NCBI GenBank assembly: GCA_026770705.1
Contig: JANJGN010000032.1
Location: 14,632,001-14,696,000, forward strand
DNA: 64,000 nt
Origin: Isurus oxyrinchus
Taxonomy: Eukaryota
Direction of reading: 5' to 3'
Shown here: positions 24,042 to 50,058 of the stretch, in pieces
How positions within the stretch are numbered: the first letter of the stretch is position 1
Layout of the letters: each line of letters begins with the position of its first letter
Made by a program: the position numbers and the translations under genes
Notes under the pieces: model-generated
Told to the model about the DNA's origin: nothing
Databases searched by the model: none
Seen by the model: only the letters and a program-made list of their open reading frames with translations

Positions 24042-24124
24042 TTTGTTTTGAAAAATATACTTTATTCATAAAATATATGGCAGAACATTCCAACCCATTT
24101 CAAAATCACTATCACATAAGTACA
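24042..24124 (-). mobile_element. True Tx1 3' terminus
   Basis: Minus strand reads ..TATATTTTATGAATAAAGTATATTTTTCAAAACAAAA. Separated from the rest of the UTR by a Penelope with TSD ATCACA(T/A)AAGTACA. Confidence 0.8.
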
Positions 24125-24945
24125 GAAACAGAAATACCTGGAAAAACTCAGCAGGCAGCATCGGTGGAGAAGAGTACAGTTGACGTTTTGAGTCCTCACG
24201 ACCCTTGAACAGAATTAAGTAGAAATAGCAGAGGGGTGAAATATAAGCTGGTTTAAGGGATGGGGGGAGAGGAGATTGGGGGGCGGTGGTTGTTGGGACA
24301 AGCAAGCAGTGATAGGAGGAGATAACCAAAAGATGTCACAGACAAAAGAACAAAGAGGTGTTGAAGGTGGTGATATTATCTAAAAGAATGTGCTAATTAA
24401 GAGTGGATAGCAGGACAAGCAAGGTACAGATAGCTCTAGTGGGGGTGGGGTGAAATAAGACTAAAGGGCATAAAAGGTATCGATTTAAAAATAATGGAAA
24501 TAGGTGGGAAAAGAAAAATCTATATAAATCATTGGACAAAACAAAAAGGAGGGGGAAGAAACGGAAAGGGGGTGGGGATGGAGGAGGGAGTTCAAGATCT
24601 AAAATTGCTGAACTCAGTATTCAGTCCGGAAGGTTGTAAAGTGCCTAGTCGGAAGATGAGGTGCTGTTCCTCCAGTTTGCGTTGGGCTTCACTGGAACAA
24701 TGCAGCAGGCCAAGGACAGACATGTGGGCAAGAGAGCAGGGTGCAGTGTTGAAATGGCAAGGGACAGGGAGTTCTGGGTCATTCTTGCGGACAGAATGAA
24801 GGTGTTCTACAAAGCAGTCACCCAGTCTGCGTTTGTTCTTTCCAATGTAGAGGAAACCGCATTGCCAGACCTGCTAAGTTTTTCCAGGTATTTCTGTTTC
24901 TGGTTTTGTTTTGGATTTCCAGCATCCTCAGTTTTTTGTTTTTAT
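24125..24945 (-). mobile_element. Penelope fragment P1 (GIY-YIG C-part, pseudo-LTR, short inverted tail arm)
   Basis: Homologous to 14524-15320. Inverted ~80-bp arm at ~24862-24945. Inserted in the Tx1 3' UTR. Confidence 0.9.
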
Positions 24946-25601
24946 CACAAAAGTACAATCAGATTCAACTTTTACACATGTATCACAAGGTGCATCAATA
25001 TAATCAATGAATATTACAATCATTTCAATATGGTCAATGCAGACAATCAGACAATGGGATTGGAGTTATCAATATACATCATGTTACACTCTGAGGTGCT
25101 TCAATACATTTATAATGCACTTAGTATTCAATGCATACATTCATTGTGAGCTGCACAGCCCGAGGGGCTCTCAACAGTTCCCAGTCCCTCCGTGCCCTAT
25201 GGCAGAAAGGTCTTAGACAGCGACCTTTCCCCATTGCGCTTTTGTGGCGGCTGCCCCAACCTTTAGTGCGTCCCTCAGCACATAGTCCTGGACTTTGGAA
25301 TGTGCCAGTCTGCAACACTCGGTCGGGGACAACTCTTTGCGCTGGAAAACCAACAAGTTTCAGGCAGACCAAAGAGCGTCTTTCACCGAGTTGATGATCC
25401 TCCAGCTGCAGTTGATGTTTGTCTCGGTGTGTGTCCCTGGGAACAGCCCGTAGAGCACAGAGTCCCTGTGTCACAGAACTGCTTGGGATGAACCTCAACA
25501 GAAACCACTGCATCTTTCTCCAGACCTTCTTTGCAAAGGCACAATCCACAAGGAGGTGAACAACGGTCTCGGTCCCACCACAGCCTCCTCGAGGGCAACG
25601 T

Positions 25602-25996
25602 TGTCGCGGAAAACGGAGTGAACACTAGGACCCAGGAGGTTTGTCTTGGAAGTCTTTATTGAATCATGATATCATGGAGAGCCCAGCAGTATACAATGGA
25701 GCTAGCTGGCATTCTGAGAAGCATTAGAGTACACACATAGTTATAGCAAAAAAGTACATATCTTTTGGCATGCACACAATAGTTCTTTTAATTTACAACC
25801 ACATCTGACACTTGCACAACCCATCTGGCGCCCATTAGTCTGGGAAGGTAGCTGATAGCGCGACTAGTCTATTATTTTATGTGCTAGTGAGAAAACGTAT
25901 GGGCCTAGTTTCAAGGACATTTCGTTGTAATATTCCATCATATAGTTTAACCACTTAACCCTTTGTTATCCTGTATATGTATTTTATTCTCCCACA
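25602..25996 (-). repeat. Third ERV LTR (duplicate of the 3' LTR)
   Basis: Reverse complement of 46779-47172 with the same ACGTT/Tx1 flank. Confidence 0.95.
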
Positions 25997-26020
25997 ATCC
26001 CTCCTTGTTAATCTTTTAGA

Positions 26021-27292
26021 TTAACACCAGTGAGGAATAGTATCTTCACTTTCATATGGGGGTTCATAACCATAAGGAAAAGGCCGATCACTGGTGGGGT
26101 AAACTTTCTCTCCCCACCAGTGGGCTTCACTGGGGCCAGTGCACCTCATTTGGGGAATAATTGGGGCACCACCTAATCCAGTAAAGACGCCATTGATAAT
26201 CTGGGAGCAGCAAATCCGCAAAGCAACACATGCACAACACTCTATAACACATGCTATGGACCAACCCAATTAAAACGTATAGCAACCAACTTCCCCAATC
26301 AGAGAACCAACCTAGTATTACAGACCACCAAGAGTCTTTTTTATAAAAATTACTCAAACTTTCCGTTTCAATACGTAATACAAGTTAGATCACTTGATAA
26401 CAGCTGCTATATTGTTGCTGGACAATGTCTATTACAGCGAGTGGCGTGGACCCAGTCTTCCTTCCCTTTAATCTTCAGGGCCGTTCGATTTGTTAGCAGC
26501 ACAAGGTAGGTTCCTTTCCACCCTCTCATGCAATTCAGCTGCTGTTTTGCATAGAGGAAAATGAGTACAAATCCAACATTTAGTCCGATTAACTTGCGAG
26601 GCTACGGCCTGCATTCGTTGAACCGCAGAATTGGTAGTCCATACCCCCGCAAGGACCACGCAGAACAGGATCAAAATCAGAGTCAGCATTCTGATGGCTC
26701 AGTTAAAGTTCTTGCACAAGCACTTCCGTCCGAGGTCAGCGTCCGCTTGATGTGCGATGCGTGGATCCACAAGGGATGTCCTTCAACCTTCACTGCTATA
26801 TGGGTGGTGAGCAGGACTTGGAAAGGCCCTTCCCATCGAGATTCCAAACAGTTCTTTCTCCTGAAGGTCTTTACTAGGACTAGGTCCCCGGGCTGGTATT
26901 GATGGCAATCTTCAATGGTGGGCTTTTTCTGAGCTTCTACTACCTGTATATGCAAGCTCTTGAGAGAATTAGTGAGCGCTATACAGTATGTAATCATCCC
27001 CTCATCCATAGCGTGGATGTCCATTTCCCTAGCAGACAAGGGTGAGGTCACTGGGAGACGCATAGGACATTCCATTACAACTTCATAAGGAGAAAGGGAG
27101 GTGGTACGGTTAGGGTGAGAGCGCATAGTCTTTAGCGCCAAGCCAATTCAGGCTCTTTCAAACCAGTTTCTTCACATAATTTAGCTAGTTTGTTTTTCAG
27201 AATACCCTGTTGTCTTTCCACCGCCCCAGTAGACTGGGGGTGGTATGGGCAGGAAAGGTGATGGTTGCATTGTAAGGCCCTCAACAGTTCCT
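26021..27292 (-). pseudogene. Duplicate integrase A C-half and env A
   Basis: ORFs 26683-27141, 26468-26689 and 26127-26357 mirror 45633-46648. Confidence 0.9.
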
Positions 27293-28289
27293 AGGAACTG
27301 GGATGCTATCACTAGGATGCTATCTAAGATAAAGAATGTGTCGATAAACATAGGGAAATTATAACTTGGATACAAATCATTACACATGAAAAAGAGGTTG
27401 TTTTAATTCTGATAGTGTAAATTACAGTTCTTACAAGGTTTAAAAAATTTGAGGTTTGGTTCCTGATAATTTCTCAAAAGGGAATTTTCATTTTAAAAGG
27501 TTTGACAACAATTGGCATTAATTCAAATGCTGCAAGCTTTTGTGTTTGTAAGTCTGTTCCCAAAATGTGAAGTTAAGCTCAAGATCTTGACAAAGTTTGG
27601 CAGAAATCCATTTTTTGGCCGAGTTAATGAATCTGGGATAATGCAAAAAAAAAGAAAAAAAAGTCAGACATAATTTAGTGGGACAATAAGATGTTGTTTG
27701 AGAAGAAGATAAGGAAGCAAAACATGTCAATGTTTGATTTCTGTTTTAAAACTGTTATGAGAATATTTTATTGGACTGTAAAGTCTCTCCAGACAACCTG
27801 AACAAGATAAGATGGCCATCAACTGAGGCATTGGAACTGCCTAAAGAGTAAGGAAACATTTTAAACAATCAAGACAATAGAGAAACTGAACTCAAGAGAA
27901 TCTTAGGATGATCATGGTCAAGAAAAAAAAAACTTAAGAGGTAAAACTACATGGAATCTGTAGTTCAGGAATTGAAATGTAAGGAGAAATAATACTTAAC
28001 AACAATTTACCACAAGATGGATCCAAGTGAAGGGAAAGCTGGGAAAAGGCTAAATAGATGCATTACTGACTATATTAAGGTGCCTGCAAGCTACAAAGAG
28101 TAAGACCACAGGATTAATACCTTGATGACAGACAGAGTTAAGCGGTTCCCAGAGAAAACCATCACTGGGAGTGAAGATACTGAGCCATTGAAAGAAAGGA
28201 TAAGAAGGTGCACTGTAGAGTTGTGTTGGCAGTTTAAGGAATTGAGGCCTGACATGAGACAGCAGCAGGAGAAAGTAAACTGGAAGGAA

Positions 28290-30067
28290 TGGAGGTGCCT
28301 ACCCAGATGGATTCAGATCAGGGAACTCATTTCACAGGTAGAGTCATTAAAGAAGTGTATAATCTTATGGAGATTAAACAGAAATTCCATATTCCTTACC
28401 ACCCTCAGAGTCCAGGGATGGTGGAAAAGATAAACTGAACTTTAAAAACAACTATAGCCTAAGCAATTCAGGAGACAGGCAACAGCTGGGCCACTGTATT
28501 GCCCAGCATTCTGATATGCCTTAGGGCTACACCAAATAGGACTACCAGGTTCACCGCATTGAATTGGTAACAGGTAAGGGCCGTGCAATTACCTGAAGGC
28601 ATTATAGTAGGAGGTGTAGGGCCACTGAAAGGAAAAATACAGGACAATGTAAGGGAATTAAGTAGGCAATAACATGAGTTGAGAGAGGAAGTTAGAGACT
28701 GACAGATGATTAAGGATATGGAAACAGGCAAATCCAAAGAGCAACAACGGACCCCTCCAAGTGGGGAAAAAGGTGATGGCTAGGGTGAGCTCGAAGCGAA
28801 CAGGCATGGACCATACGAGGTAATTATGACAGGTGATACATGCGCACTTGTAGATATGAGAACGAGAGCCGATGTTAATGTCTCCACAGATCTACGATCC
28901 TGGTCATCGGCGTATCAGTACTGGCAACAATGTTGGGGATCATCACTGCTCATCCCTCACCGCAGGAGGAACTTTGGTACAGCACGGACAGTGCCGAATG
29001 CAACACGCAACGGGGAATGATAAATGTAACAGTAGGAGAACAAGTGCTTTCAAATTGTAGTAAGGGTTTGCTTCAGATCGGGCATGGGAGGTCCGCCACT
29101 ATCCAGCCACCTTCCACATCTACTTTCACAGTCCGAGTAGAGATAATTGAAGCCCCTAAAAACCACACTGACTGACCCATCTTGTCCGACTATGCATCCA
29201 GGACCAACGAATGGTTTGGTACTGGTTAATCAGAAGTTTTGTATGATAATGTACACCATGAGCTGGTACCCGTAGTCTTGAATGTATCCGGAATCATCCT
29301 GCCTCTGTGGTGCTCAACCCATACCCAAGCACTCTATACATCTCTGACGCGCCAGTTGATGACTGAAGCAGTTCAGTTCAATGGCGAGATGTGATCAGGC
29401 TTGGGAGGGAACTGCGTTAAGCGCAGCCTGATAAAGGATGCCGCTACGATATTCAATATAGGGACATCATTGGTTAATCCAAAGCCTGGCTACCATGCTC
29501 GAAAGTCATGTGGGGACTATCAATAAATTAACTGAAGTAGGGAAAAATATTTCAGACGAAGTGAGCAGAAATGATGTATGCAACACCAATGGATCTTGGG
29601 CACTGGAACAAGCCTGAGAAAACTTAACACAGATTAAAGAAGGGGTAGGCCCTTTATGGGTAACTAATGAGCATTTATTGAATCTCTTAAGACACAAGAA
29701 TCATGACTTGACCGGTTGCCAGCTCAGGGGTTTAACACGTTTATGTAGAATGAATGTTGAATGTATAGTGAATGGTAATATACTAATAGGCATTGTATTA
29801 GTAATACCTGTCACACCTATGTCAATGACATAACCCAGGCAAGACGCTCACAGTGACTACTGGTATGGGACCCCAGCCGTGGGGCCCATTTGTACACCTA
29901 CAAATGGACTTTATACAAATGCCTAAATGTATGGAATATAATTATGTTTTAGTTCTGGTATGTTTGTTCTCACAATGGGTGGAGGCGTATCCCACCCGAT
30001 GAAATGATGCTGTTATTGTTGTAAAATTGTTGTTGTGTGAATACATACCCAGATTTGGGATACCCGA
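28290..30067 (+). pseudogene. Duplicate integrase B, env B and integrase A core
   Basis: Same motifs as 42067-44480 on the opposite strand. The furin site reads CVKR in this copy. Confidence 0.85.
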
Positions 30068-31507
30068 AGGTGTTCTGCAAAGAGGTCACCCAGTCTGTGT
30101 TTGGTCTCTCCAATGTAGAGGAAACTGCATTGGGAGCAGTGAATGCTGTAGACTAAATTGAAGGAAGTGCAAGTGAAATGCTGCTTCACTTGAAAGGGGT
30201 GTTTGGGCCCTTGGACGGTGAGGAGAGGAGAAGTAAAGGGGCAGGTGTTGCACCTTCTGTGGTTGCATGGGAAGGTGCCGCGGGAGGGGGTTGAGGAGTA
30301 GGGGGTGATGGAGGAGTGGACCAGGGTGTCCTGGGGGGAAAGATCCCTGCGGAATGCCGCCGGGGGTTGAAGGGAAGATGTGTTTGGTGTTAGCATCATG
30401 ATGGAGTTGGCGGAAAGTTCCAACCCACTCCAACTTCAACTTTTCCGCCAACTCCAGCATGATGCCACCACCAAACACATCTTCCCTTCACCCCCCCCCC
30501 GGCGGCATTCCACAGGGATCGTTCCCTCTGTGACACCCTGGTCCACTCCTCCATCATCCCCTACACCTCAACCCCCTCCCGCGGCATCTTCCCATACAAC
30601 TGCAGAAGGTACAACAGCTGCCCCTTTACTTCCCTTCTCCAAGGGCCCAAACACTCATTTCAAGTGAAGCAGCATTTCACTTGCATTTCCCTCAACTTAG
30701 TCTACTGCATTCATTCCTCCCAATGCGGTTTCCTCTACATTGGAGAGACCAAACACAGACTGGGTGACTTCTTTGCATAACACATTCGGTCTGTCCGCAA
30801 GCATGACCCAGACCTCCCTGTCACTTGCCATTTGAACACAGCACCCTTGCTAGGCCACTTCAGAGGGCAGTTAAGAGTCAACCATGTCTGTCCTTGGCCT
30901 GCTGCATTGTTCCAATGAAGCTCAATGCAAACTGGAGGAACAGCACCTCATCTTCCGATGAGGCACTTTACAGCCTTCCGGACTGAATATTGAGTTCAAC
31001 AATTTTAGATCATGATCTCTATCCTCCATCCCCACCCCTTTTCCGATCCCCCCCTTTTTTTCCAATAATTTATATAGATTTTTCTTTTCCCACCTATTTC
31101 CATCCATTGTTTTATCTCTACCTTTTAGCCTATTTCGATCCCTTCCCTTCACCCCACCCCACCCCCACTAGGGCTATCTGTACCTTGCTCATCCTGCTTT
31201 CTACCCTCAATTAGCACATTCCTTAGATAATATCACCACCTGCAACACCTCTTTGTCCTTTTGTCTGTGACATCTTCTGGTTATCTCCACCTCTCACTGG
31301 CCCTCTATCCAGCTCTACCTGTCCCACCACCGACCCCCCCCTTAAACTAGCTTATATTTCACCTCTTTTCTATTTTTACTTAGTTCTGTTGAAGAGTCAT
31401 ACGGACTTGAAACGTTAACTGTGTTCCTCTCCGCAGACCTGCTGAGCTTTTCCAGGTATCTTTATGTTTGTTTTGGGTTTCCAGCATCCGCAGTTTTTTG
31501 CTTTTAT
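30068..31507. mobile_element. Penelope P2, inverted arms (30068-30419 minus; 30438-31507 plus)
   Basis: GIY-YIG coding remnants on both arms. The tail at 31470-31507 is followed by TCATATATTTAAGT. Confidence 0.9.
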
Positions 31508-31536
31508 CATATATTTAAGTACAGGCTGTCCTCTGT

Positions 31537-31985
31537 GTGTCAGCTGTGGTTCAGTTAGTAGCACCCTTGTCTCTGGATCTCTGTTCAAGCCCCATGCCAG
31601 GGCTTGAACACAAAATCAAAGCTGATACTCTGTTGTAGTATTGGGGGAGTGCTCCACTGTTGGAGGTGCTGTCTTTCAATAAATTGTGAAACCGAGGGCC
31701 CCATCTACCTGCTTGGGTGGATGTTAAAGATCCCATGGCACCATTTCAAAGAAGAGCAGGGGAGTTATCCTCAGTGTCCTGGCCAATATTTATTCTTCAA
31801 TCAACATTGCAAACCAGATTATCCAGCCATGATCACATTGCTGTTTATGGGAGTCTGCTGTGTGTAAATTGGCTGTTGTGTTTCCTACATTACAACAGTG
31901 ACGACACTTCAAAAAGCATCTCATTGGCTGTAAAGTGCTTTGAAATGTCCAGTGTTGTTTAAAGTGCTATGTAAATATGTCTTTA
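31537..31985 (+). mobile_element. Deu-domain SINE (SacSINE1/AmnSINE-like)
   Basis: tRNA-like head and core AAAGATCCCATGGCAC..GAAGAGCAGGGGAGTT..GTGTCCTGGCCAATATTTAT (recalled consensus). Confidence 0.75.
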
Positions 31986-32824
31986 TTTTTCTATTCTGTT
32001 TCCATTTCTCCATATTGGCGGAGAGTGAACTTTCTGCTCCCCTTTGCACAGTTCCGTGGGAATTGTGACAGACCATTTCATCCGAAGGATGGCACCTCAA
32101 CATAGTAGAGCTCAGGTCCTGGAGTAGAGTTCACTTCCACAACCTTTTGACCCAGGAGGTGAGAACACTACTGACTGAGCCAAGCTGGTAACACGCTACC
32201 ACTGATTTTGCTGTCGCCATTTTAAAGTAACTTCCATCCAGCCTTTATCGGAGTAATTTTTTAAAATAAAAACAGAGAATGCTGGAAAAACTCATCAGGT
32301 CTGGCAACATCTGAGGAGAGAGAAACAGTTAACATTTCGAGTCTGTATGACTCTGGCTGACTGAAGTCAAGCCAACAGAAGTTCCAACGAAATTTATGAG
32401 TTGGAACTTAAAAAAAAATGTATTTAACTTCTGACAAAACTTATTTGTGCAGCCAGGAGGAGAGCGGAGTCAGGTAAACCTACAAGGATACAATCAGGTA
32501 TCTCTTTGTAAAAGGGGCAACACAAACTAAGAGGTGGAATCTAGCCTTCCTAAACTAATTTTTGTTAAGCAGAAGTTAACAAATCGAATCAGAATGGTAA
32601 AATCCAGGCAAGTTATAACAAATTTTCAAGTGGTTTCCACTGATCACAAAAGGTGTCCAGTAGAACTTTAATAGGTTGTATTTTGTGTAGGCCTTTAAAA
32701 ATATTGGGGGAAAACCTGGCTCCACAGTGTCTTCTCTTAAAAAAGCAACAGCATTAATGTTTCATGGGGTGGGAGGGGTGGTTGTTGGGTTCAGGACTAC
32801 CTAAGATGAATTTTTTTATCAAAA

Positions 32825-33050
32825 ATAGGGAATTCAGAAGAAACTCCTTTACCCAGAGAGTGATGAAGAATGTAGAACTCGTGAGTAGTTGAGGTGAATA
32901 GCATAGATGCATTTATGGGGAAACTGGATAAGCACATGATGGAGAAGGGAATAGAGTGTTCTGATAATAAGAGTTAGCAAGGACTGGTTGGGCCATTTGT
33001 TCGATTTCTATGCTGTTTATTCTATGTAATTCTATGTAAATCTATGTAAT
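32825..33050 (+). mobile_element. CR1 3' end with (ATTCTATGT)n tail
   Basis: FTQRV remnant and a tandem tail at 33020-33050. Confidence 0.65.
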
Positions 33051-33082
33051 TAAAATGTTAAATATTAGAAACTGCAGACACA

Positions 33083-33833
33083 GGGCAGAATCTTGTGCTG
33101 TCGCTGGTTGTGAGCTTGGAAACGGGAAGGATGGTGGCGTACAGGAACCCCACTGCATTCACCAGAATTAAATTCTGGGTGAGAAGGTCCATGGTCGACC
33201 TTCCTGCCCCACCACCTATCGAGGCCCTTAAGTGGTCAATTAATGGCCACTTCAAGGCCTCATCCTGCCGCCATTGGTATTAACACAGCTGTGGGCCAAC
33301 CTGTCACCATGAGGTGTGAATGACAGGTAAAATTGTGCAGTCAGCTTGTCACCTCCAGGAGGAGGGTGGGGTGGGGTGGCGATGCATTCGATTAAAGGTG
33401 CCTGATTGAGGGACTGGACATTGGGAAGGATGGGGGGGTCCACTGAGACCCGGCCCCTGCCCTGGCTGCCGATCCCTCTGCCCTGTTCTTGCTGCAACCC
33501 CAACCCCATGAAACCACCTCCCCGCCCAACCCCCACCACATTACTTACCTGTGGCTTGGGTCACTCCACGAACCTGGGACCCCATTGCCTGTCCTTCCGG
33601 CAGCAGTCACAGCCACCCCACTGGCGCTGCTGAGCACAAGAGCCTCTGATTGGCTGGCAGCTCTTGGAATGGTGAGACATCTGCCGCCAGGGTCTTGTTT
33701 CCAGGGGAGGACCCGCCATTGGCCTCGCCACTGCCTGATTGGCTTGTGGTTCAGTGAAAAGAGGCAACACAGGTCTCTTACCAGTTCTCCAGCCAGCAGG
33801 CGAGACCCCCAACGCCTCAACAAGATTCCACCC
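33083..33833. mobile_element. Harbinger-type MITE
   Basis: TIRs GGGCAGAATCTT/AAGATTCCACCC and TSD ACA on both sides. A related fragment lies at ~13570-14230. Confidence 0.8.
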
Positions 33834-40071: not shown

Positions 40072-40074
40072 AAT

Positions 40075-40092: not shown

Positions 40093-40423
40093 CCGACTGA
40101 AGTCCAGCAGCCTCTTAAGTTGGAGAGGTAGTTAAAATTTTGAGCTGTCGGATCTCTAAAAAAAAAAGAACCCTCACGGAGAAAAGGAGGAACAACTCTC
40201 CTAAGTTAGGGAGAGTACGAACTGCATCCTGGCTGAAAGGGGGATTGCAGTGAATTAGCGTCCCAGCTGAAAGGGGGACGGCGAGTAAAAGGGTAGCTAC
40301 TGACCTAAGAGACTTAAGAGACCCAAAGAATTGGAGGACTTGTTAAGGAACTCTTAAACACCGGTGAGCGCATAGGTAGGGAAAACAGGCTGCGCTGTTA
40401 ATTGTGTTTCCTTTCTAGATATA

Positions 40424-40834
40424 ATGGGTAGTCTTAGCAGCAGAGAGGCATCTGCTGCCTCCCCGGTTCCACAGGGTTCCAAAACCAAACCAAAGCCAGA
40501 GCCCAAATCAGGAACTTTGAAGATGGGTAAGAGAATGGAAAAAACGTATGAAAATGGTAACCAGGGCTCAACAAAAGGTAGGAGACCCACTGCCCCCCCA
40601 CCGGGGTCACCAGCCGACGTTGTTATAACAGAAACAGGAGATGACAGGTATGCGGTGCCTTTTAGCAGTGACTTATATGGTTGGACACAAGGGGAATGGC
40701 TGTATGGTGGCAGTTTTAAAATACCCCTCATCCAGGCCTGGTGGGATGGAGTGGCTAATGGGGCCGGAGATCCTACTTGGGATTTTGATTATATGATGGG
40801 TTGTTCTGAAAAATGGATGGAGGTAAAAAAGTAG
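40424..40834 (+). CDS. Open 136-aa upstream ERV ORF, Gag matrix-like
   Basis: Starts MGSLSS (MGxxxS myristoylation-like), has a PTAP motif, and contains GNQGS..PPGSPA..W...W..GGSF, which resembles ERV MA. Expression is unknown. Confidence 0.55.
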   Translation: MGSLSSREASAASPVPQGSKTKPKPEPKSGTLKMGKRMEKTYENGNQGSTKGRRPTAPPPGSPADVVITETGDDRYAVPFSSDLYGWTQGEWLYGGSFKIPLIQAWWDGVANGAGDPTWDFDYMMGCSEKWMEVKK

Positions 40835-40919
40835 TAATAGTATACCCAGGGGTTTGAGTCCCCTGGAGGTGAAAAGTAAGTAATTTCTATGTTCTCTTTT
40901 GTGAATATTATTAAGTAAA

Positions 40920-41110
40920 ATGGGAAATATGACATCAAAGAAACCCCAGGTTCCCCCTTTGAAGGGAACCCCAAATGCTTATATGTATGTCCATTATGTC
41001 CTGAAATTGTCCAATATGTTTCTGATTGGGTTAAATGGACTCAAAGTAAAGGAGAGAACTTCCCACCAGCTGGAACTTTTAATCAGGACAGAATTGAGCA
41101 CTTATAATAT
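40920..41110 (+). pseudogene. gag: gag matrix fragment (frameshifted)
   Basis: MGNMTSKK..KGTPNAYMYVHY, then after a frameshift PEIVQYVSDWVKWTQSKGENFPPAGTFNQDRIEHL*. This is a typical gamma/epsilon-like MA pattern. Confidence 0.7.
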
Positions 41111-42022
41111 GTTTTAAGGGAGGTAGATAGAATTGTCTTGTGTGTGTGTAGTTGAGCACTTTAGAGTCGAAAGCCCCATATTAGATTAAAGGAAAAGTTT
41201 ATTCAAATATTCCAAAGTTTTGAGTATAAGGTTTGAGTTGAGATTTCTGGTAAAAATCACAATTTGAAGAGCTTGCCTTTGTTTGAGATGAACCAACCCT
41301 TGTACCACCCCCTTGCAGACTAGTAGGGAATAACCCTCATCATCAGCTTTCAAGCTGATTGGGATTAATACATATGAGTTAGTATTCTAAAAGTCTGAGA
41401 GAAAAAAGAAAAAATTACTTGAAATTCAGAAAGATTCTAAGGAAACCAAAAGACATGAACGCAAGGTCTAGATGGTTCCAATGGATAAAAAGGGGTTTCT
41501 TATGAAGAGATGAATTAAATATTAGAGGAAATCTGCTTTCCAAAATCACTGGAATTTGAATTTGGGATAGTCTTGAGATGTAAAGTGGTGTAATTTAACA
41601 GATTACTTTTGAATCACTAGGATGCTATCTAAGATAAAGAATGTGTCGATAAACATATGGAAATTATAACTTGGATACAAATCATTACACATGAAAAAGA
41701 GGTTGTTTTAATTCTGATAGTGTAAATTATAGTTCTTACAAGGTTTAAAAAATTGAGGGTTGGTTCCTGATAATTTCTCAAAAGGGAATTTTCATTTTAA
41801 AAGGTTTGACAACAATGGGCATTAATTCAAATGCTGCAAGCTTTTGTGTTTGTAAGTCTGTTCCCAAAATGTGAAGTTAAGCTCAAGATCTTGACAAAGT
41901 TTGGCAGAAATCCATTTTTTGGCCGAGTTAATGAATCTGGGATAATGCAAAAAAAGAAAAAAAATTCAGACATAATTCAGTGGGACAATAAGATGTTGTT
42001 TGAGAAGAAGATAAGGAAGCAA

Positions 42023-42315
42023 TCACTTTAGCAGTAAAATGAGGCCCTGTATCACTCGATAAAATCTCGGGTATCCCAAATCTGGGTATGTATTCACGCA
42101 ACAACAATTTTACAACAATAACAGCATCATTTCATCGGGTGGGATACGCCTCCACCCATCGCGAGAACAAACATACTAGAACTAAAACATAATTATATCC
42201 CATATATTTAGGCATTTGTATAAAGTCCATTTGTAGGTGTACAAACGGGTCCCACGGCTGGGGTCCTGTACCAGCAGTCACTGTGGGCGTCTTGCCTGGG
42301 TTATGTCATTGACAT
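42023..42315 (-). pseudogene. pol: Integrase A, core N-half (inverted within provirus)
   Basis: Reads HNPGK..GPFVHLQMDFIQMPK..YVLVLVCLFS.WVEAYPT..EYIPRFGIPEILSSDTGPHFTAKV, covering the first two acidic residues of DDE. A copy lies at 29820-30067 (+). Confidence 0.85.
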
Positions 42316-42343
42316 AGGTATGACAGGTATTACTAATACAATG

Positions 42344-42967
42344 ATAAAAACAAAAAAACTGCAGATGCTGGAAATCCAAAACAAAAACAGAATTACCTGG
42401 AAAAACTCAGCAGGTCTGGCAGCATCGGCGGAGAAGAAAAGAGTTGACGTTTCGAGTCCTCATGACCCTTCGACAGAACTTGAGTTCGAGTCCAAGAAAG
42501 AGTTGAAATATAAGCTGGTTTAAGGTGTGTGTGTGGGGGGAGGAGAGAGAGAGAGAGGTGGGGGGTGTGGTTGTATGGACAAACAAGCAGTGATAGAAGC
42601 AGATCATCAAAAGATGTCAACGACAATGGTACAATAGAACACATAGGTGTTAAAGTTAAAGTTGTGATATTATCTAAACGAATGTGCTAATTAAGAATGG
42701 ATGGTAGGGCACTCAAGGTATAGCTCTAGTGGGGGTGTTTTTTTTTATATAATGGAAATAGGTGGGAAAAGGAAAATCTTTATAATTTATTGGAAAAAAA
42801 AAGGAAGGGGGAAACAGAAAGGGGGTGGGGATGGGAGAGGGAGCTCACGACCTAAAGTTGTTGAATTCAATATTCAGTCCGGAAGGCTGTAAGGTGCCTA
42901 GTCGGAAGATGAGGTGTTGTTCCTAAAGATGAGGTGTTTTTCCAGGTAATTCTGTTTTTGTTTTTTT
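42344..42967 (-). mobile_element. Penelope 3' fragment inserted after the duplication
   Basis: 16-bp TSD TATTACTAATACAATG at 42328-42343 and 42968-42983. The empty site is present at ~29791-29806. Confidence 0.95.
42442..42480 (-). ncRNA. Minimal hammerhead-ribozyme-like motif (variant core CUGUCGA)
   Basis: AGUU-CUGUCGA-AGGGUC(AUGAG)GACUC-GAAA-CGUC-AACU. PLE pseudo-LTRs are known to carry minimal hammerheads. Other copies at 16481-16519, 14619-14658, 31382-31420 and 48677-48714. Confidence 0.65.
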
Positions 42968-42969
42968 TA

Positions 42970-43885
42970 TTACTAATACAATGCCTATTAGTATATTACC
43001 ATTCACTATACATTCAACATTCATTCTACATACACGTGTTAAACCCCTGAGCTGGCAACCGGTCAAGTCATGATTCTTGTGTCTTAAGAGATTCAATAAA
43101 TGCTCATTAGTTACCCATAAAGGGCCTACCCCTTCTTTAATCTGTGTTAAGTTTCCTCAGGCTTGTTCCAGTGCCCAAGATCCATTGGTGTTGCATACAT
43201 CATTTCTGCTCTCTTCGTCTGAAATATTTTTCCCTACTTCAATTAATTTATTGATAGTCCCCACATGACTTTCGAGCACGGTAGCCAGGCTTTGGATTAA
43301 CCAATGATGTCCCTATATTGAATATCGTAGCGGCATCCTTTATCAGGCTGCGCTTAACACGGTTCCCTCCCAAGCCTGATCACATCTCGCCATTGAATTG
43401 AACTGCTTCAGTCATCAACTGGCGTGTCAGAGATGTATAGAGTGCTTGGGTATGGGTTGAGCACCACTGAGGCAGGATGATTCCGGATATATTCAAGACT
43501 ACGGGTACCAGCTCATGGTGTACATTATCATACAAAACTTCTGATTAACCAGTACCAAACCATTCGTTGGTCCTGGATGCATAGTCGGACAAGATGGGTC
43601 AGTCAGTGTGGTTTTTAGGGTCTTCAATTATCTCTACTCGGACTGTGAAAGTAGAGGTGGAAGGTGGCTGGGTAGCGGTGGACCTCCCATGCCCGATCTG
43701 AAGCAAACCCTTACTACAATTTGAAAGCACTTGTTCTCCTACTGTTACATTTATCATTCCCCGTTGCGTGTCGCATTCGGCACTGTCCGTGGTGTACCAA
43801 AGTTCCTCCTGCGGTGCGGGATGAGCGGTGATGATCCCTAACCTTGTTGCCAGTACTGATACACCCATGACTAGGATCGTAGATC
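42970..43885 (-). pseudogene. env: env B fragment (non-gamma; lokiretrovirus/F-like by recalled motifs)
   Basis: Signal-peptide-like ILVMGVSVLATRLGIITA, then PGPTNGLVL, ELVPVVLN.SGIILP, furin site RVKR and fusion-peptide-like SLIKDAATIFNIGTSLVN. Contains stops and frameshifts. Confidence 0.7.
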
Positions 43886-43909
43886 TGTGGAGACATTAAC
43901 ATCGGCTCT

Positions 43910-44480
43910 CGTTCTCATATCTACAAGTGCGCATGTATCACCTGTCATAATTACCTCGTATGGTCCATGCCTGTTCGCTTCGAGCTCACCCTAGCCATCA
44001 CCTTTTTCCCCACTTGGAGGGGTCCGTTGTTGCTCTTTGGATTTGCCTGTTTCCATATCCTTAATCATCTGTCAGTCTCTAACTTCCTCTCTCAACTCAC
44101 GTAATTGCCTACTTAATTCCCTTACATTGTCCTGTATTTTTCCTTTCAGTGGCCCTACACCTCCTACTATAATGCCTTCAGGTAATTGCACGGCCCTTAC
44201 CTGTTATCAATTCAATGCGGTGAACCTGGTAGTCCTATTTGGTGTAGCCCTAAGGCATATCAGAATGCTGGGCAATACAGTGGCCCAGCTGTTGCCTGTC
44301 TCCTGAATTGCTTAGGCTATAGATGTTTTTAAAGTTCAGTTTATCTTTTCCACCATCCCTGGACTCTGAGGGTGGTAAGGAATATGGAATTTATATTTAA
44401 TCTCCATAAGATTATACACTTCTTTAATGACTCTACCTGTGAAATGAGTTCCCTGATCTGAATCCATCTGGGTAGGCACC
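43910..44480 (-). pseudogene. pol: Integrase B fragment (second, divergent integrase)
   Basis: GVPTQMDSDQGTHFTGRVIKEV..HIPYHPQSPGMVEKIN*TLK..QETGNSWATVLPSILICLRATPNRTT. Confidence 0.85.
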
Positions 44481-45481
44481 TCCATTCCTTCCAGTTTACT
44501 TTCTCCTGCTGCTGTCTCATGTCAGGCCTCAATTCCTTAAACTGCCAACACAACTCTACAGTGCACCTTCTTATCCTTTCTTTCAATGGCTCAGTATCTT
44601 CACTCCCAGTGATGGTTTTCTCTGGGAACCGCTTAACTCTGTCTGTCATCAAGGTATTAATCCTGTGGTCTTACTCTTTGTAGCTTGCAGGCACCTTAAT
44701 ATAGTCAGTAATGCATCTATTTAGCCTTTTCCCAGCTTTCCCTTCACTTGGATCCATCTTGTGGTAAATTGTTGTTAAGTATTATTTCTCCTTACATTTC
44801 AATTCCTGAACTACAGATTCCACGTAGTTTTACCTCTTAAGTTTTTTTTTTCTTGACCATGATCATCCTAAGATTCTCTTGAGTTCAGTTTCTCTATTGT
44901 CTTGATTGTTTAAAATGTTTCCTTACTCTTTAGGCAGTTCTAATGCCTCAGTTGATGGCCATCTTATCTTGTTCAGGTTGTCTGGAGAGACTTTACAGTC
45001 CAATAAAGTATTCTCATAACAGTTTTAAAACAGAAATCAAACATTGACATGTTTTGCTTCCTTATCTTCTTCTCAAACAACATCTTATTGTCCCACTAAA
45101 TTATGTCTGACTTTTTTTTCTTTTTTTTTGCATTATCCCAGATTCATTAACTCGGCCAAAAAATGGATTTCTGCCAAACTTTGTCAAGATCTTGAGCTTA
45201 ACTTCACATTTTGGGAACAGACTTACAAACACAAAAGCTTGCAGCATTTGAATTAATGTCAATTGTTGTCAAACCTTTTAAAATGAAAATTCCCTTTTGA
45301 GAAATTATCAGGAACCAAACCTCAAATTTTTTAAACCTTGTAAGAACTGTAATTTACACTATCAGAATTAAAACAACCTCTTTTTCATGTGTAATGATTT
45401 GTATCCAAGTTATAATTTCCCTATGTTTATCGACACATTCTTTATCTTAGATAGCATCCTAGTGATAGCATCCCAGTTCCT

Positions 45482-46091
45482 AGGAACTGTTGAGGGCCTT
45501 ACAATGCAACCATCACCTTTCCTGCCCGTACCACCCCCAGTCTACTGGGGCGGTGGAAAGACAACATGGTATTCTGAAAAACAAACTAGCTAAATTATGT
45601 GAAGAAACTGGTTTGAAAGAGCCTGAATTGGCTTGGCGCTAAAGACTATGCGCTCTCACCCTAACCGTACCACCTCCCTTTCTCCTTATGAAGTTGTAAT
45701 GGAATGTCCTATGCGTCTCCCAGTGACCTCACCCTTGTCTGCTAGGGAAATGGACATCCACGCTATGGATGAGGGGATGATTACATACTGTATAGCGCTC
45801 ACTAATTCTCTCAAGAGCTTGCATATACAGGTAGTAGAAGCTCAGAAAAAGCCCACCATTGAAGATTGCCATCAATACCAGCCTGGGGACCTAGTCCTAG
45901 TAAAGACCTTCAGGAGAAAGAACTGTTTGGAACCTCGATGGGAAGGGCCTTTCCAAGTCCTGCTCACCACCCATATGGCAGTGAAGGTTGAAGGACGTCC
46001 CTTGTGGATCCACGCATCGCACATCAAGCGGACGCTGACCTCGGACGGAAGTGCTTGTGCAAGAACTTTAACTGAGCCGTCAGAATGCTGA
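45482..46091 (+). pseudogene. pol: Integrase A, C-terminal half
   Basis: ELLRALQCNHHLSCPYHPQSTGAVERQHGILKNKL, then ..SPYEVV..YQPGDLVLVK..LEPRWEGPFQVLLTTHMAVKVEGRPLWIHASHIK (GPF/WIHASH motif). Confidence 0.92.
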
Positions 46092-46754
46092 CTCTGATTT
46101 TGATCCTGTTCTGCGTGGTCCTTGCGGGGGTATGGACTACCAATTCTGCGGTTCAACGAATGCAGGCCGTAGCCTCGCAAGTTAATCGGACTAAATGTTG
46201 GATTTGTACTCATTTTCCTCTATGCAAAACAGCAGCTGAATTGCATGAGAGGGTGGAAAGGAACCTACCTTGTGCTGCTAACAAATCGAACGGCCCCTGA
46301 AGATTAAAGGGAAGGAAGACTGGGTCCACGCCACTCGCTGTAATAGACATTGTCCAGCAACAATATAGCAGCTGTTATCAAGTGATCTAACTTGTATTAC
46401 GTATTGAAACGGAAAGTTTGAGTAATTTTTATAAAAAAGACTCTTGGTGGTCTGTAATACTAGGTTGGTTCTCCGATTGGGGAAGTTGGTTGCTATACGT
46501 TTTAATTGGGTTGGTCCATAGCATGTGTTATAGGGTGTTGTGCATGTGTTGCTTTCTGGATTTGCTGCTCCCAGATTATCAATGGCGTCTTTACTGGATT
46601 AGGTGGTGCCCCAATTATTCCCCAAATGAGGTGCACTGGCCCCAGTGAAGCCCACTGGTGGGGAGAGAAAGTTTACCCCACCAGAGATCGGCCTTTTCCT
46701 TATGGTTATGAACCCCCATATGAAAGTGAAGATACTATTCCTCACTGGTGTTAA
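46085..46754 (+). pseudogene. env: env A, internally deleted gamma-type envelope
   Basis: Signal peptide MLTLILILFCVVLAG and the CWIC motif (NRTKCWICTHFP), joined to a TM-proximal segment WWSVILGWFSDWGSWLLYVLIG..CC. Confidence 0.8.
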
Positions 46755-46765
46755 TCTAAAAGATT

Positions 46766-46778
46766 AACAAGGAGGGAT
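46766..46778 (+). promoter_or_regulatory. Polypurine tract
   Basis: AACAAGGAGGGAT immediately 5' of the 3' LTR. Confidence 0.75.
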
Positions 46779-47172
46779 TGTGGGAGAATAAAATACATAT
46801 ACAGGATAACAAAGGGTTAAGTGGTTAAACTATATAATGGAATATTACAACGAAAGGTCCTTGAAACTAGGCCCATACGTTTCTCACTAACACATAAAAT
46901 AATAGACTAGTCGCGCTATCAGCTACCTTCCCAGACTAATGGGCGCCAGATGGATTGTGCAAGTGTCAGATGTGGTTGTAAATTAAAAGAACTATTGTGT
47001 GCATGCCAAAAGATATGTACTTTTTTGCTATAACTATGTGTGTACTCTAATGCTTCTCAGAATGCCAGCTAGCTCCATTGTATACTGCTGGGCTCTCCAT
47101 GATATCATGATTCAATAAAGACTTCCAAGACAAACCTCCTGGGTCCTAGTGTTCACTCCGTTTTCCGCGACA
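46779..47172 (+). repeat. ERV 3' LTR
   Basis: Direct repeat of 39680-40071, followed by TSD ACGTT. Confidence 0.95.
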
Positions 47173-47828
47173 ACGTTGCCCTCGAGGAGGCTGTGGTGGG
47201 ACCGAGACCGTTGTTCACCTCCTTGTGGATTGTGCCTTTGCAAAGAAGGTCTGGAGAAAGATGCAGTGGTTTCTGTTGAACTTCATCCCAAGCAGCTCTG
47301 TGACACAGGGACTCTGTGCTCTACGGGCTGTTCCCAGGGACACTCACCGAGACAAACATCAACTGCAGCTGGAGGATCATCAACTCGGTGAAAGATGCTC
47401 TTTGGTCTGCCTGAAACTTGTTGGTTTTCCAGCGCAAAGAGTTGTCCCCGACCGAGTGTTGCAGACTGGCACATTCCAAAGTCCAGGACTACGTGCTGAG
47501 GGACGCACTAAAGCTTGGGGCAGCCACCACAAAAGCACAATGGGGAAAGGTCGCTGTCTAAGACCTTTCTGCCATAGGGCATGGAGGGACTGGGAACTGT
47601 TGAGAGCCCCTCGGGCTGTGCAGCTCACAATGAATGTATGCATTGAATACTAAGAGCATTATAAATGTATTGAAGCACCTCAGAGTGTAACATGATGTAT
47701 ATTGATAACTCCAATCCCATTGTCTGATTGTCTGCATTGACCATATTGAAATGACTGTAATATTCATTGATTATATTGATGCACCTTGTGATACATGTAT
47801 AAAAGTTGAATCTGATTGTACTTTTGCG
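47173..47828 (+). mobile_element. Tx1 LINE part 2 (CCHC knuckle, stop, 3' UTR)
   Basis: Joining across the TSD restores ARCPRGGCGGTETVVHLLVDCAFAKKVW. Stop at ~47561. Confidence 0.9.
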
Positions 47829-48780
47829 ATAAAAACAAAAAACTGCGGATGCTGGAAATCCAAAACAAAACCAGAACCAGAAATACCTGGAAAAACTCAG
47901 CAGGTCTGGCAATGCGGTTTCCTCTACATTGGAAAGAACAAACGCAGACTGGGTGACTGCTTTGCAGAACACCTTCATTCTGTCCGCAAGAATGACCCAG
48001 AACTCCCTGTCCCTTGCCATTTCAACACTGCACCCTGCTCTCTTGCCCACATGTCTGTCCTTGGCCTGCTGCATTGTTCCAGTGAAGTTCAACGCAAACT
48101 GGAGGAACAGCACCTCATCTTCCGACTAGGCACTTTACAACCTTCCGGACTGAATACTGAGTTCAGCAATTTTAGATCTTGAACTCCCTCCTCCATCCCC
48201 ACCCCCTTTCCGATCTCCCTTTTTTTTCAATAATTTATATAGATTTTTCTTTTCCCACCTATTTCCATTATTTTTAAATGTATTCCCATCCATTGTTTTA
48301 TCTCTACCTTTTAGTCTATTTCGATCCCTTCCCTTCACCCCACCCCCAGTGTCAGCTATTAGTCAAAACTAACTACCTCCTCCCAGAATGGAATTTACCA
48401 GCCTTATTGGCATTGCTGAGTTTAAATGAACATGATTGTTGCAGCAGCTATGAGATTAAGCAGTCACTGGGATGTACCTTGCTTGTCCGGCTTTCTACCC
48501 TTAATTAGCACATTCTTTTAGATAATATCACCACCTTCAACACCTCTTTGTTTTTTTGTCTGTGACATCTTTTGGTTATCTCCACCTATCACTGGCCCTC
48601 TATCCAGCTCTACCTGTCCCACCCACCCAACCCCCTTAAACCAGCTTATATTTCACCTCTTTTCAATTTTTACTTAGTTCTGTTGAAGAGTCATTTGGAC
48701 TCGAAACATTAACTGTGTCCCCCTCCGCAGATGCTGTCAGACCTGCTGAGTTTTTCCAGGTATTTTTATTTTTGTTTTTG
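47829..48780 (+). mobile_element. Hybrid Penelope (P1-type 5' part, P2-type 3' part)
   Basis: Matches P1 up to ~48200, then matches diagnostic 31030-31160 sequence. Followed by ACTTAAATATATGA. Confidence 0.85.
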
Positions 48781-50058
48781 ACTTAAATATATGAGATGCT
48801 TACAGTCGACAAAAACAGCAAATGATAGAAATACTCTAAATCAGACAGTATCTGAGGAAAAAACTTACTTCATGAAATGATTTAAAATAGTAAAGATGCA
48901 ACTCTATTCCACCTCAGCGTTACTTAACATATGCAATCTAACCTCTTTGCATGCTGCCTTATAGCCCAGGGGGAAAATCCTCTTCCTGCAGTCTCTTGGC
49001 TTTTTTACCCTCTCATAGCACTCGACTTTCACAGCTCATTTGTCATTCTCTAACTCCAGTGTCAGCTATTAGTCAAAACTAACTACTTCTTCCCAGAATG
49101 GAATTCACCAGCCTTATTGACATTGCTGAGTTTAAATGAACAGGATTGTTGCAGCAGCTATGAGATTAAGCAATCACTGGGATGTCAAGTTGTCCATCAT
49201 CGTCTCCAGGTCAGTGGTTCAGATGCCCCATCTGAAAACTAATATATACTTGACAGCCCTGTTGGCCTTTTAATTGAACCCCTTAACATTTAAGTTTTTC
49301 TCAATACTTACATTTTTAACAAGGGCCCCTAAACCCACCACCTCCATCATAACAGCATAGGCTGAAATTCTATGTGACACTGTAGCCAACATTTATCCCT
49401 CAATCAAGACTACCAAAAGACAATTGGCCGTTCATTTATTTCAACCTTGGGGCAAGGAGCAGAAATCTTATCTGTCTGTTATCTATTGCACATTTGCTAT
49501 TTTGTGATTGTAAAATATTTAAATCTACATCTGAAGTAAACTGATCCACTCTATATTTTGCATCTGACACTTCATGCTGTGTCAATTCTGGTATGTGACA
49601 CAATGTTGTGCATTGACCCAGTTCATGCTTTGTATCTGACAGCCTCTCATAATGTATTGTTCTGCTTCGTTTTTGTTGCTGAGACTTTATGTAATATATT
49701 ATTCCATTCCATAATTTTGTAGCTGGACCTGTACTGATCCATCTCACATTTTGTATCTGGAATTAGCACAATCTGATTAGCTGTCGTCAGAAGTGAGAAA
49801 GTGGCCTGTAGCAACCCCGCCATCCTTTTGTGGCCCAATTCTTTCCTTTACTTCTTACTTGGTGCATACATTTTGCCATTCTGTTCTCTATCTTTTCATA
49901 TGCTGTTTTTTTTGCAGCTTTTATTAAGATTTTGACATGTTTCAACCATCTTTTTGTCTTTTCAATACTTGAACATCCTTAAGACTTTCTCTTTTTCCTC
50001 AATGTCTTTCTTAGTTTTTCTGATTTTCAAATGTTGGTTATCTTTCTATTCAGCCCTA

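Follow-up and report, generated by a model that had tools for sequence, protein, structure and literature searches.

Across the 64-kb window, by which we mean the whole stretch of DNA analysed, the blocks under study follow one another in the order A-B-C'-B'-D, where the ancestral order would have been A B C D. Host genes play no part: the 140 of 202 open frames of at least 75 codons that were scanned (484 to 53118) gave four Pfam matches, all to transposon domains, and Rfam returned no match. As no host gene is involved, no phenotype is implied. Segment C is inverted with respect to its flanks, in that the split host repeat, the target-site duplication (TSD) of the LINE and the TSD of the Penelope copy P2 each have one half inverted within C. 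Block B, which adjoins a breakpoint, is present twice in opposite orientation (24562-30067 against 42067-48212, 98.5%). The inversion with a ~5.5-kb inverted duplication proposed in the initial annotation is therefore upheld, with the two copies of B placed around a 12-kb C. Both new junctions are assembled in cis in the window, which has no gaps (0 N). We consider it very probable, given these features of the sequence, that the locus carries a real germline duplication-flanked inversion (dupINV), A B C D to A B C' B' D. The features are collected in Table 1.

Table 1 Coordinates of the rearranged blocks, transposons and junctions in the window.
Feature	Position	Strand	Remarks
Host repeat, left half	23906-24035	+	Flank A; split by LINE insertion; aligns to paralog 11153-11293, 25 mismatches/128 columns
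LINE TSD, copy at LINE 3' end	24036-24041	+	CACAGT; exact 6-nt run with reverse complement of 38075-38080
Penelope P1	24111-24957		Antisense arm long, sense end short; TSD of 14 nt (1 mismatch); sits in LINE tail; donor of homeologous junction
Block B, left copy	24562-30067	+	Part of P1, LINE 3' end, 3' LTR, part of retroviral internal region
Inner-junction insert	27293-27307	+	15 nt: 8 nt inverted copy of adjoining flank, 7 nt direct copy from 14 nt further on
Block X, inner-event copy, left B	27308-27720	+	6/410 columns differ from 41613-42022; 1/413 from 45054-45466
Derived junction J1	30064-30067		4-nt microhomology CCGA; end of B against broken P2 antisense arm
Segment C	30064-42066		12.0 kb, single copy; flipped relative to flanks (other half of split repeat, other LINE TSD and P2 TSD all inverted within C)
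Penelope P2, part kept in C	30064-31506		Rest of antisense arm 30064-30416, sense arm 30417-31506; arms differ at 30/344 columns
P2 TSD, copy in C	31507-31520	+	Exact 14-nt run with reverse complement of 48781-48794
Host repeat, right half, with second LINE TSD copy (38075-38080)	37977-38080	-	Aligns to paralog 11298-11397
5'-truncated LINE, reverse transcriptase part	38081-39679	+	RVT_1 matches 38082-38507, 38654-39601; interrupted by retroviral element
Decayed LTR element	39680-47173	+	5' LTR 39680-40071, 3' LTR 46779-47173; MLVIN_C and rve matches; holds inner rearrangement
Block X, original position	41613-42022	+	Ends at other inner junction, 2-nt microhomology 42021-42022
Inverted segment of inner event	42023-45053	-	Integrase core broken at its end
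Block B, right copy	42067-48212	-	Inverted; includes 640-bp Penelope insertion P3
Penelope P3	42344-42983	-	640 bp; exact 15-16-nt TSD; right B copy only; empty site 29791-29805
Block X, inner-event inverted copy, right B	45054-45466	-	7/410 columns differ from 41613-42022
Derived junction J2	48206-48213		Crossover from P1-type to P2-type sequence; diagnostic-site map and pairwise distances
P2 antisense arm, outer end	48213-48780	+	Still joined to flank D; 2/108 and 22/290 columns differ from P2 sense arm
Templated insert	48346-48475	+	130 bp copied from 49056-49185; 6/130 columns differ
P2 TSD, copy on flank D	48781-48794	-	Inverted partner of 31507-31520

The insertion order can be read from the sequence: the LINE entered the host repeat and was itself entered by P1 and by the LTR element, and P2 inserted further out, with P1 and the outer arm of P2 lying in inverted orientation. 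The LINE, putatively of the Tx1 clade and recognised by its RVT_1 matches, contains the retroviral element within a 5-nt TSD. The reverse complement of 38076-37977 matches 11298-11397 of an intact host-repeat paralog, each half of the split repeat is about 80% alike to it, and the halves abut in its register once the 6-nt word is counted a single time. That word, CACAGT, has 39 matches on the two strands of the window and is weak alone; the TSD holds because the word sits at both LINE ends and because of the paralog register. The split repeat and the LINE TSD at 24036-24041 and 38075-38080 thus stand as initially annotated, except that the left half can be aligned from 23906 and not from 23867.

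P1, P3 and a further copy at 18094-18314 carry inverted terminal arms bounded by TSDs of 14-16 nt, a layout described for Penelope elements in PMC3846280. P2, when rebuilt as TSD, antisense arm, sense arm and TSD, has the same layout. Both P1 and P2, which are mutually inverted 700-bp copies about 88% identical, are homologous to a copy at 14522-15616 with a putative GIY-YIG domain; the GIY-YIG match in this related copy (15058-16179, E 1.7e-4) scores 22.3 bits, under the cut-off of 22.6, and a profile search of open frames gave no GIY-YIG match in P1 or P2 themselves. The arms of P2 being 8-9% apart, it is the TSD, layout and subfamily sites that link the right end to P2, and not near identity. 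The P2 TSD has one match per strand in the window, with a composition-based chance of about 1e-8 per position and 4e-7 within 20 nt. An exact 14-nt pair with 48781-48794 had been reported and is present; its left copy, given as 31508-31521, was off by one and lies at 31507-31520.

At the left junction (J1), the two copies of B match up to 30067 and P2 matches its relatives from 30064, so that 4 nt are common to both, in agreement with the CCGA microhomology described at 30064-30067. At the right junction (J2), 47905-48206 is 1.0% from P1 and 9.5% from the P2 sense arm, while 48476-48780 is 7.6% from the P2 sense arm and 14.4% from P1. The last P1-type site is 48206 and the first run of P2-type sites starts at 48213, although 20 of the 83 diagnostic sites to the right of the crossover are P1-type. 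Diagnostic sites and pairwise distances therefore confirm the P1/P2 hybrid that had been placed near 48200 and narrow its crossover to 48206-48213. Mediation by Penelope copies, as the event was initially described, holds in the sense of homeology at one junction and at the break site, with no sign of Penelope enzymes acting. The templated insert lies 130 nt from J2, is flanked by 3-nt microhomology on either side and replaces about 11 nt of P2.

Which junctions are old can be told from the integrase. Its core runs in frame across 42067/42066 (rve profile positions 4-42, then 47-81), whereas in B the integrase frame ends at 30067, where Penelope sequence takes over, which makes 42067/42066 the old junction and 30067 the new one. 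Position 30064 corresponds to P1 position 24796, and the hybrid is P1-type over 24796 and on to 48206, so no Penelope coordinate is missing. The start of C' is in register with the resumption of D, about 230 Penelope positions from the crossover, a geometry that favours one break within P2 over two free template switches.

From the crossover onward, the copies of B differ by 84 substitutions in 5505 aligned columns (1.5%), and self-BLAST aligns them in two minus-strand matches, 24483-29806 against 48279-42968 (98.3%) and 29791-30067 against 42343-42067 (95.3%). The substitutions over 24650-30067 are 62 transitions and 22 transversions (n = 84). CpG losses number 17 on the left, 10 on the right and 1 on both, and with the 5' LTR as outgroup there is 1 change on the left and 3 on the right; hence both copies have mutated. 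Divergence along B is uneven (chi-square p = 0.003), at 4.7% in the 277 bp beyond the P3 insertion and 1.4% elsewhere; the middle may have diverged more slowly through conversion between the two arms. The longest identical run, 427 nt, is not significant (p = 0.09). Within the 4.7% stretch, which lies near J1, CpG is lost at 4 sites on the left, 0 on the right and 1 on both, and amino-acid changes fall on both sides; error-prone synthesis near J1 is not favoured as its source, given the changes on both copies and the small numbers. We also rejected the idea that B and B' are independent insertions of a common LTR family, as P1, the LINE end, the LTR-LINE junction and the inner-junction insert are all common to the two. 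The divergences are 1.5-1.7% between X copies, 1.0% between B copies at non-CpG sites (0.77-1.34) and 2.7-3.3% between the LTRs (16-18 differences in about 391 columns), and since their intervals overlap only the order of events is firm.

The LTR element holds an older event of dupINV shape, in which a 3-kb segment was flipped and a 413-bp block (X) copied. Positions 4-42 and 47-81 of the rve profile fall on the minus strand at 42305-42021, and a later piece of the integrase core lies on the plus strand at 45484-45639. At least six contigs of run X16 diverge from the window at 27292 and continue into sequence starting near 42023, so other copies of the family are unbroken there. The composition of the 15-nt insert at the inner junction is read from a 16-nt palindrome at 27285-27300 and a repeat (27301-27310 and 27315-27324), with the same letters in the right copy of B. 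As both copies of B hold the same junction insert, the inner event preceded the outer one, and their origin in a single event is not favoured. Block and segment taken together end in an inverted microhomology of 7 nt, the far-end break is clean, and the inner event has the same coincidence of register as the outer, within a few nucleotides. The initial reconstruction, sound in its inversion, inverted copy, microhomology junction and inverted-Penelope junction, had missed this inner event and the 130-bp insert.

The outer event is a known kind of rearrangement, a dupINV or, in Drosophila terms, a 'staggered-break' product, and not a DUP-TRP/INV-DUP, because it triplicates nothing. B is present in two copies and C in one, without a triplicated segment inside a duplication; that X and the LTR each occur three times is due to the older inner event and to the LTR element itself, not to the outer event. 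The initial comparison with DUP-TRP/INV-DUP thus applies to the pair of junctions, one a chimeric inverted repeat (the P1/P2 hybrid, 48206-48213) and the other a short microhomology (4 nt, 30064-30067), and fails for the product, whose copy numbers are those of a dupINV. A balanced inversion through ectopic recombination of two transposon copies was likewise rejected: the hybrid is confined to the right junction, P1 on the left is unbroken from one TSD to the other, and B is duplicated.

With moderate confidence, we regard repair of a single double-strand break inside P2 as the most likely route to the dupINV. P2 would have been broken at about 30064 and its D-side end resected, after which the Penelope tail would have paired with the inverted, ~88% identical P1 some 17-24 kb off, about 230 nt of P2 being overwritten by P1 sequence. 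Repair synthesis would then have copied B, and the other break end, the P2 end of C, would have been attached, through the 4 nt of microhomology, where the original B ends. This order of steps requires a putative further step, long resection or a second break, that removed C from where it first stood on the left arm. The inner event had come earlier, and its templated 15-nt insert is of a type left by synthesis-dependent end joining; after the outer event both copies of B decayed and P3 inserted in one.

Two template switches at a stalled fork, the mechanism initially suggested, predict exactly the sequence seen, and are one of several routes to it. Synthesis would have left B at 30067 by the 4-nt microhomology, landed in P2 on the opposite strand, copied C and B backwards and returned from P1 to P2. 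The junction pair is the signature reported for DUP-TRP/INV-DUP (PMC11293582), and the 130-bp insert could be a third switch. In the yeast work of PMC4215184, homeologous strand invasion is inefficient and tolerates divergence less than does a template switch after synthesis has started; this low tolerance of first invasions favours the initially suggested order over one that starts with the break. We nevertheless hold this route to be rather unlikely, as its first landing is free and yet matches the register of the return site (to about 230 nt in 12 kb), which it leaves unexplained; the inner event repeats the coincidence within a few nucleotides, and the mutations near J1 are on both copies, not solely on a newly made one.

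Two successive steps, or two chromatids, would yield the same product less plausibly still, and we think such a history improbable. A balanced P1/P2 inversion would have come first, or sister chromatids would have broken at separate sites; a standard and an inverted chromatid would later have been joined by microhomology, which doubled B. Staggered breaks on two chromatids are described as giving this product, one-sided inverted duplications included (PMC1885836), inverted transposon pairs are reported to mediate inversions (PMC9675761), and the uneven divergence of B (p = 0.003) could be a mosaic of haplotypes. The reciprocal hybrid is absent from the window, however, and J1 would again need to lie no more than about 230 nt from the earlier breakpoint.

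The public contigs that we compared come from four of 24 listed runs (X3 and X4 of organism A, X18 and X16 of organism B) and cover 23500-39670, with 42066 and the right junction outside. For X3, all eight listed pieces (4809 bp, 4458 in C) are without differing letters, and the eight of X4 likewise, though both runs are maybe from the source sample; two of the listed rows differ in single-copy DNA. The contigs of organism B are 1.6% diverged (82/5117 bp over eight listed X16 pieces, single-copy parts only). Neither junction 30067 nor the P1/P2 hybrid occurs among the contigs, joints and loose ends listed for 23500-39670; as transposon families dominate these listings, this is evidence neither way. 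An assembly artefact, in which two B haplotypes were falsely placed in tandem, is very improbable, even though no listed public contig spans either junction and depth is uninformative (B belongs to repeat families whose depth is hundreds to thousands of times that of single-copy DNA): J1 is a non-homologous, gap-free join that a standard haplotype would lack, as would one with a balanced inversion, the copies are 1.5% apart, each with transition- and CpG-rich changes and one with a private insertion and its TSD, and the zero differences in 4458 bp of listed same-species pieces inside C put allele-level differences far below that figure.

Comparable products are known elsewhere. The dupINV and dupINVdel structural variants of Collins et al. 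2017 (PMC5338099) and Sanchis-Juan et al. 2018 (PMC6286558) are described as inversions with a one-sided duplication, two new junctions, and short microhomology and repeats at the breakpoints; the shark event is, by contrast, old (1.5%) and non-human, has junctions and a history readable from TSDs, and encloses an older event of its own class. The staggered-break inversions of Ranz et al. 2007 (PMC1885836) share the product, 12 of those reported having a duplication at one breakpoint, and also reuse breakpoints, but their described duplications reach at most about 1.9 kb with repeat-free joins, against 5.5 kb and one transposon-hybrid junction here. In the DUP-TRP/INV-DUP cases of Grochowski et al. 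2024 (PMC11293582), which are proposed to arise through break-induced replication, a chimeric inverted repeat forms one junction and 1-9 nt of microhomology mark the other; there the repeats are long, near-identical low-copy repeats, whereas here they are 700-bp, ~88% identical transposons and nothing is triplicated. The transposon-mediated rearrangements of Balachandran et al. 2022 (PMC9675761) likewise include junctions in opposed, diverged copies (Alu pairs, median 81.7%), hybrid elements and breakpoint complexity, although the elements here are Penelope-like and not Alu or L1, with one hybrid junction and a 5.5-kb duplication alongside. The inner insert, an inverted (snap-back-like) plus a direct (loop-out-like) copy, resembles the products of synthesis-dependent microhomology-mediated end joining described by Yu and McVey 2010 (PMC2943611), except that it marks an inversion junction in a single old allele. 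Searches of open-licence papers gave neither a sequence-resolved Penelope-mediated case nor, among the titles listed, a nested dupINV; for such events with Penelope in sharks they listed general reviews.

The locus offers a case study: TSDs and divergence date its steps, each junction is placed to within a few bases, and for one of them the homology comes from Penelope copies of just 88% identity. If the in-register geometry and breakpoint reuse recur genome-wide, break repair and fork switching could be told apart from assemblies alone. A distance of 44 nt separates the outer breakpoint from an inner junction, and a doubtful reading is that one dupINV seeded the next. The 413-bp inverted-repeat stem would have been cut at the edge of its loop, which would put the outer breakpoint 44 nt off, and both events would follow one rule, a clean far-end break and a short or diverged inverted repeat that primes the copy. 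Later conversion of the arms, except in the 277 bp past P3, would make the event about three times older than it appears, with the 130-bp insert (4.6%) a part of it. Were this so, slow-evolving, transposon-rich genomes would hold many datable events, and a census of them could decide between a break-first and a fork-switch origin.

Taken together, the stretch reads as the rearranged product A B C' B' D, in which a 12-kb segment (C) lies inverted between two opposed copies of a block (B), with A and D as the outer flanks. Three split features, a host repeat, the TSD of the LINE that cut it and the TSD of the split Penelope copy P2, each have one half reversed inside C. The host repeat had been described as split in the initial annotation, and its halves indeed match consecutive parts of an intact paralog and abut in register; the LINE TSD is likewise found twice, the second time inverted. 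Both copies of the P2 TSD exist as claimed, the right one inverted, but the left one lies one base to the left of the position first given. This TSD has a single match on each strand of the window (chance ~4e-7 within 20 nt). When reassembled, P2 (TSD, antisense arm, sense arm, TSD) is laid out like the Penelope copies P1 and P3 and a minimal insertion, whose TSDs are also 14–16 nt, and Penelope elements with inverted terminal arms enclosed by a TSD have been reported (PMC3846280). The minimal insertion consists of two inverted ends inside its TSD. A further Penelope copy, whose 374-codon open frame has a weak GIY-YIG match at its end, carries an inverted arm that is 96% alike and sits in a short repeat that recurs inside C.

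Coordinates of the features discussed, with inverted or second copies
Feature	Position	Inverted or second copy	Remark
Block B	24562–30067	42067–48212	inverted
Self-BLAST pair	24483–29806	48279–42968	inverted
Self-BLAST pair beyond P3	29791–30067	42343–42067	277 bp, inverted
Segment C	30064–42066		inverted
J1, left junction	30064–30067
J2, right junction	48206–48213		crossover
P1	24111–24957
P2	30064–31506	48213–48780	split
P3	42344–42983		empty site 29791–29805
Host repeat	23906–24035	38076–37977	paralog 11153–11397
LINE TSD	24036–24041	38075–38080	6 nt
P2 TSD	31507–31520	48781–48794	14 nt
Minimal Penelope insertion	18094–18314		14-nt TSD
Further Penelope copy	14522–16581		its host repeat recurs at 37808–37942
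LTR element	39680–47173
Block X	41613–42022	45054–45466	inverted; also 27308–27720
Inner event	41613–45482	27285–27720
Second integrase core	28253–28435
Primer-binding-site-like stretch	40072–40090
130-bp copy	48346–48475	49056–49185	source
Old inverted pair, part 1	54404–55495	59507–58409	67%
Old inverted pair, part 2	53797–54110	60492–60200	69%
Frame	61720–62214

The proposed inverted duplication of ~5.5 kb is recovered by self-BLAST, and counting from the crossover, 84 of 5505 columns differ between the B copies (1.53%; non-CpG differences, 54/5253). Mutations have accumulated in both copies, with 17 CpG losses in the left, 10 in the right and 1 in both; polarised against the 5' LTR, 1 change falls in the left copy and 3 in the right. 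P3, a 640-bp Penelope piece with an exact TSD, is present in the right copy only, and its empty site is found in the left. At 4 differing B sites, among the 40 rows listed for the public contigs, the family allele is the right-copy allele. Along B the differences are U-shaped (9, 11, 4, 5, 5, 3, 3, 4, 11, 14 and 15 in 11 bins; p = 0.003, non-CpG p = 0.06). The 277 bp beyond P3 hold 13 of them (4.7%), as against 71/5228 (1.4%) in the remainder, an excess with a post hoc Fisher p = 2.5e-4, or 0.028 allowing for any window. Arm-to-arm conversion, blocked beyond P3, would yield the U-shape, and the event would then be older than 1.5% implies; conversion with other family copies would also yield such uneven divergence.

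The two ends of C differ in age. At 42067/42066 a minus-strand integrase core runs through in frame (rve profile 4–42, E 1.3e-5, then 47–81, E 0.053), whereas in the left B copy this frame gives way to Penelope sequence at 30067; 42066 is therefore old and J1 new. J1 has the microhomology first described for it, 4 nt being common to both sides. The claim that the right junction is a P1/P2 hybrid is borne out by pairwise distances and diagnostic sites: 47905–48206 differs by 1.0% from P1 and by 9.5% from the P2 sense arm, while 48476–48780 differs by 7.6% from the P2 sense arm and by 14.4% from P1. By manual count, P1-type sites make up 38/40 of the diagnostic sites as far as 48206 (10 of these lie where a P2-private insert disturbs the alignment), and 61/83 sites in 48213–48780 are P2-type, with 20 P1-type and 2 neither; residual P1-type sites are expected here, since P2's own arms are 8.7% apart. 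In P1 coordinates, 30064 falls at 24796, a point over which the hybrid is P1-type, as it is from there up to the crossover (~P1 24562–24568). Some 230 nt of P2 are replaced by P1 sequence, but the Penelope coordinates are all present, and C' starts where D's arm would resume. The P2 arm also contains a 130-bp copy of sequence 710 bp downstream, with 3-nt microhomology on each side and 6 differences.

The best route, which we consider somewhat probable, is a single break in P2 followed by homeologous copying repair and a microhomology join. The D end of this break would pair homeologously with the inverted P1, B would then be copied, and the other end would be joined by microhomology. A single break inside P2 directly explains the in-register arm of C' and D. 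The two template switches first proposed would produce the same letters, and in yeast divergence is reported to impede such switches less than first invasions (PMC4215184); we nevertheless regard them as unlikely, as a free landing needs a coincidence of ~230 nt in 12 kb. An origin in two steps or on two chromatids seems more doubtful still. These three routes are not separable by sequence alone.

For the public data, 4 contig runs of 24 were compared with 23500–39670, two of them from one sample of organism A, possibly the source. Among the matches listed on this interval, none spans 30067 or shows the hybrid, and the depth of B there is that of high-copy families. All eight listed pieces from one organism A set and all eight from the other show no other letters over 4809 bp, of which 4458 bp lie inside C; among the rows listed, 2 (35537, 35584) differ in single-copy DNA. 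That the B copies are falsely duplicated haplotypes is highly improbable, as two haplotypes differing by 1.5% should not show near-zero single-copy differences (a rough Poisson figure), and as J1 is absent from standard and balanced-inversion haplotypes alike, so that an assembler merging the two could not create it. Organism B, in which 82/5117 bp differ (1.6%; 8 listed pieces of one contig set), is the natural outgroup.

An older duplication-flanked inversion, overlooked in the initial annotation, is nested in the LTR element, where a 413-bp block (X) recurs inverted and, via the outer duplication, a third time. The segment between the X copies is inverted, with the integrase core ending at 42021 (minus) and a later core piece starting near 45484 (plus). 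Six contigs of organism B depart from the window at 27292 and run into sequence found near 42023, and other family members are thus unbroken there. The starts of X and of the inverted segment have 7 nt in common (41612–41618, 42021–42027). One inner junction has 2-nt microhomology; the other has a 15-nt insert that combines two copies of neighbouring sequence, one inverted and one direct, of the kind left by snap-back and loop-out synthesis (PMC2943611). Because this insert is in both B copies, the inner event precedes the outer. Divergence is 4.1–4.6% between the LTRs, 1.5–1.7% between X copies and 1.5% between B copies. A distance of 44 nt separates the outer breakpoint (42067) from the inner junction (42022); by a rough estimate, a position drawn at random from between P1 and P2 would come this close about once in 100 cases, though the proximity was noticed post hoc. 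The LTR family occurs at hundreds of times single-copy depth in the public contigs. A second, different integrase core (rve 65–102, E 6.6e-5) lies upstream of the split one, so the element looks chimeric. Its TSD is 5 nt, and directly after its 5' LTR comes a primer-binding-site-like stretch, presumably resembling a serine tRNA 3' end.

The event is a member of the dupINV class as described (PMC5338099; PMC6286558). It is also the product that the staggered-break model yields in its one-sided form, a product reported at 17/29 Drosophila inversions along with breakpoint reuse (PMC1885836). Its junctions work like those of DUP-TRP/INV-DUP as described (PMC11293582), but no segment is triplicated by it, and it is therefore not a member; the initial observation is confirmed and its interpretation supported in part. 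Inversions whose junctions join diverged copies of Alu or L1 into hybrid elements have been described (PMC9675761), and for Penelope an indirect link to inversions (PMC6278893). Listings of open-licence papers gave neither a sequence-resolved Penelope-mediated case nor a nested dupINV. Of all its aspects, only the nested recurrence of one geometry might hold a specialist's attention.

The whole window is repeat-rich animal DNA (G+C 44.7%, 0 gaps), with repeats that we take to resemble those of cartilaginous fish. Outside the right duplicate it has 202 open frames of at least 75 codons, and of the 140 scanned against Pfam (484–53118), 4 gave matches (GIY-YIG, MLVIN_C and two RVT_1); an Rfam search of the window gave none. 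The frame near the window's end has no Pfam match and looks, we assume, Harbinger-like. An old inverted pair at 53797–60492 may represent decayed DNA transposon copies.
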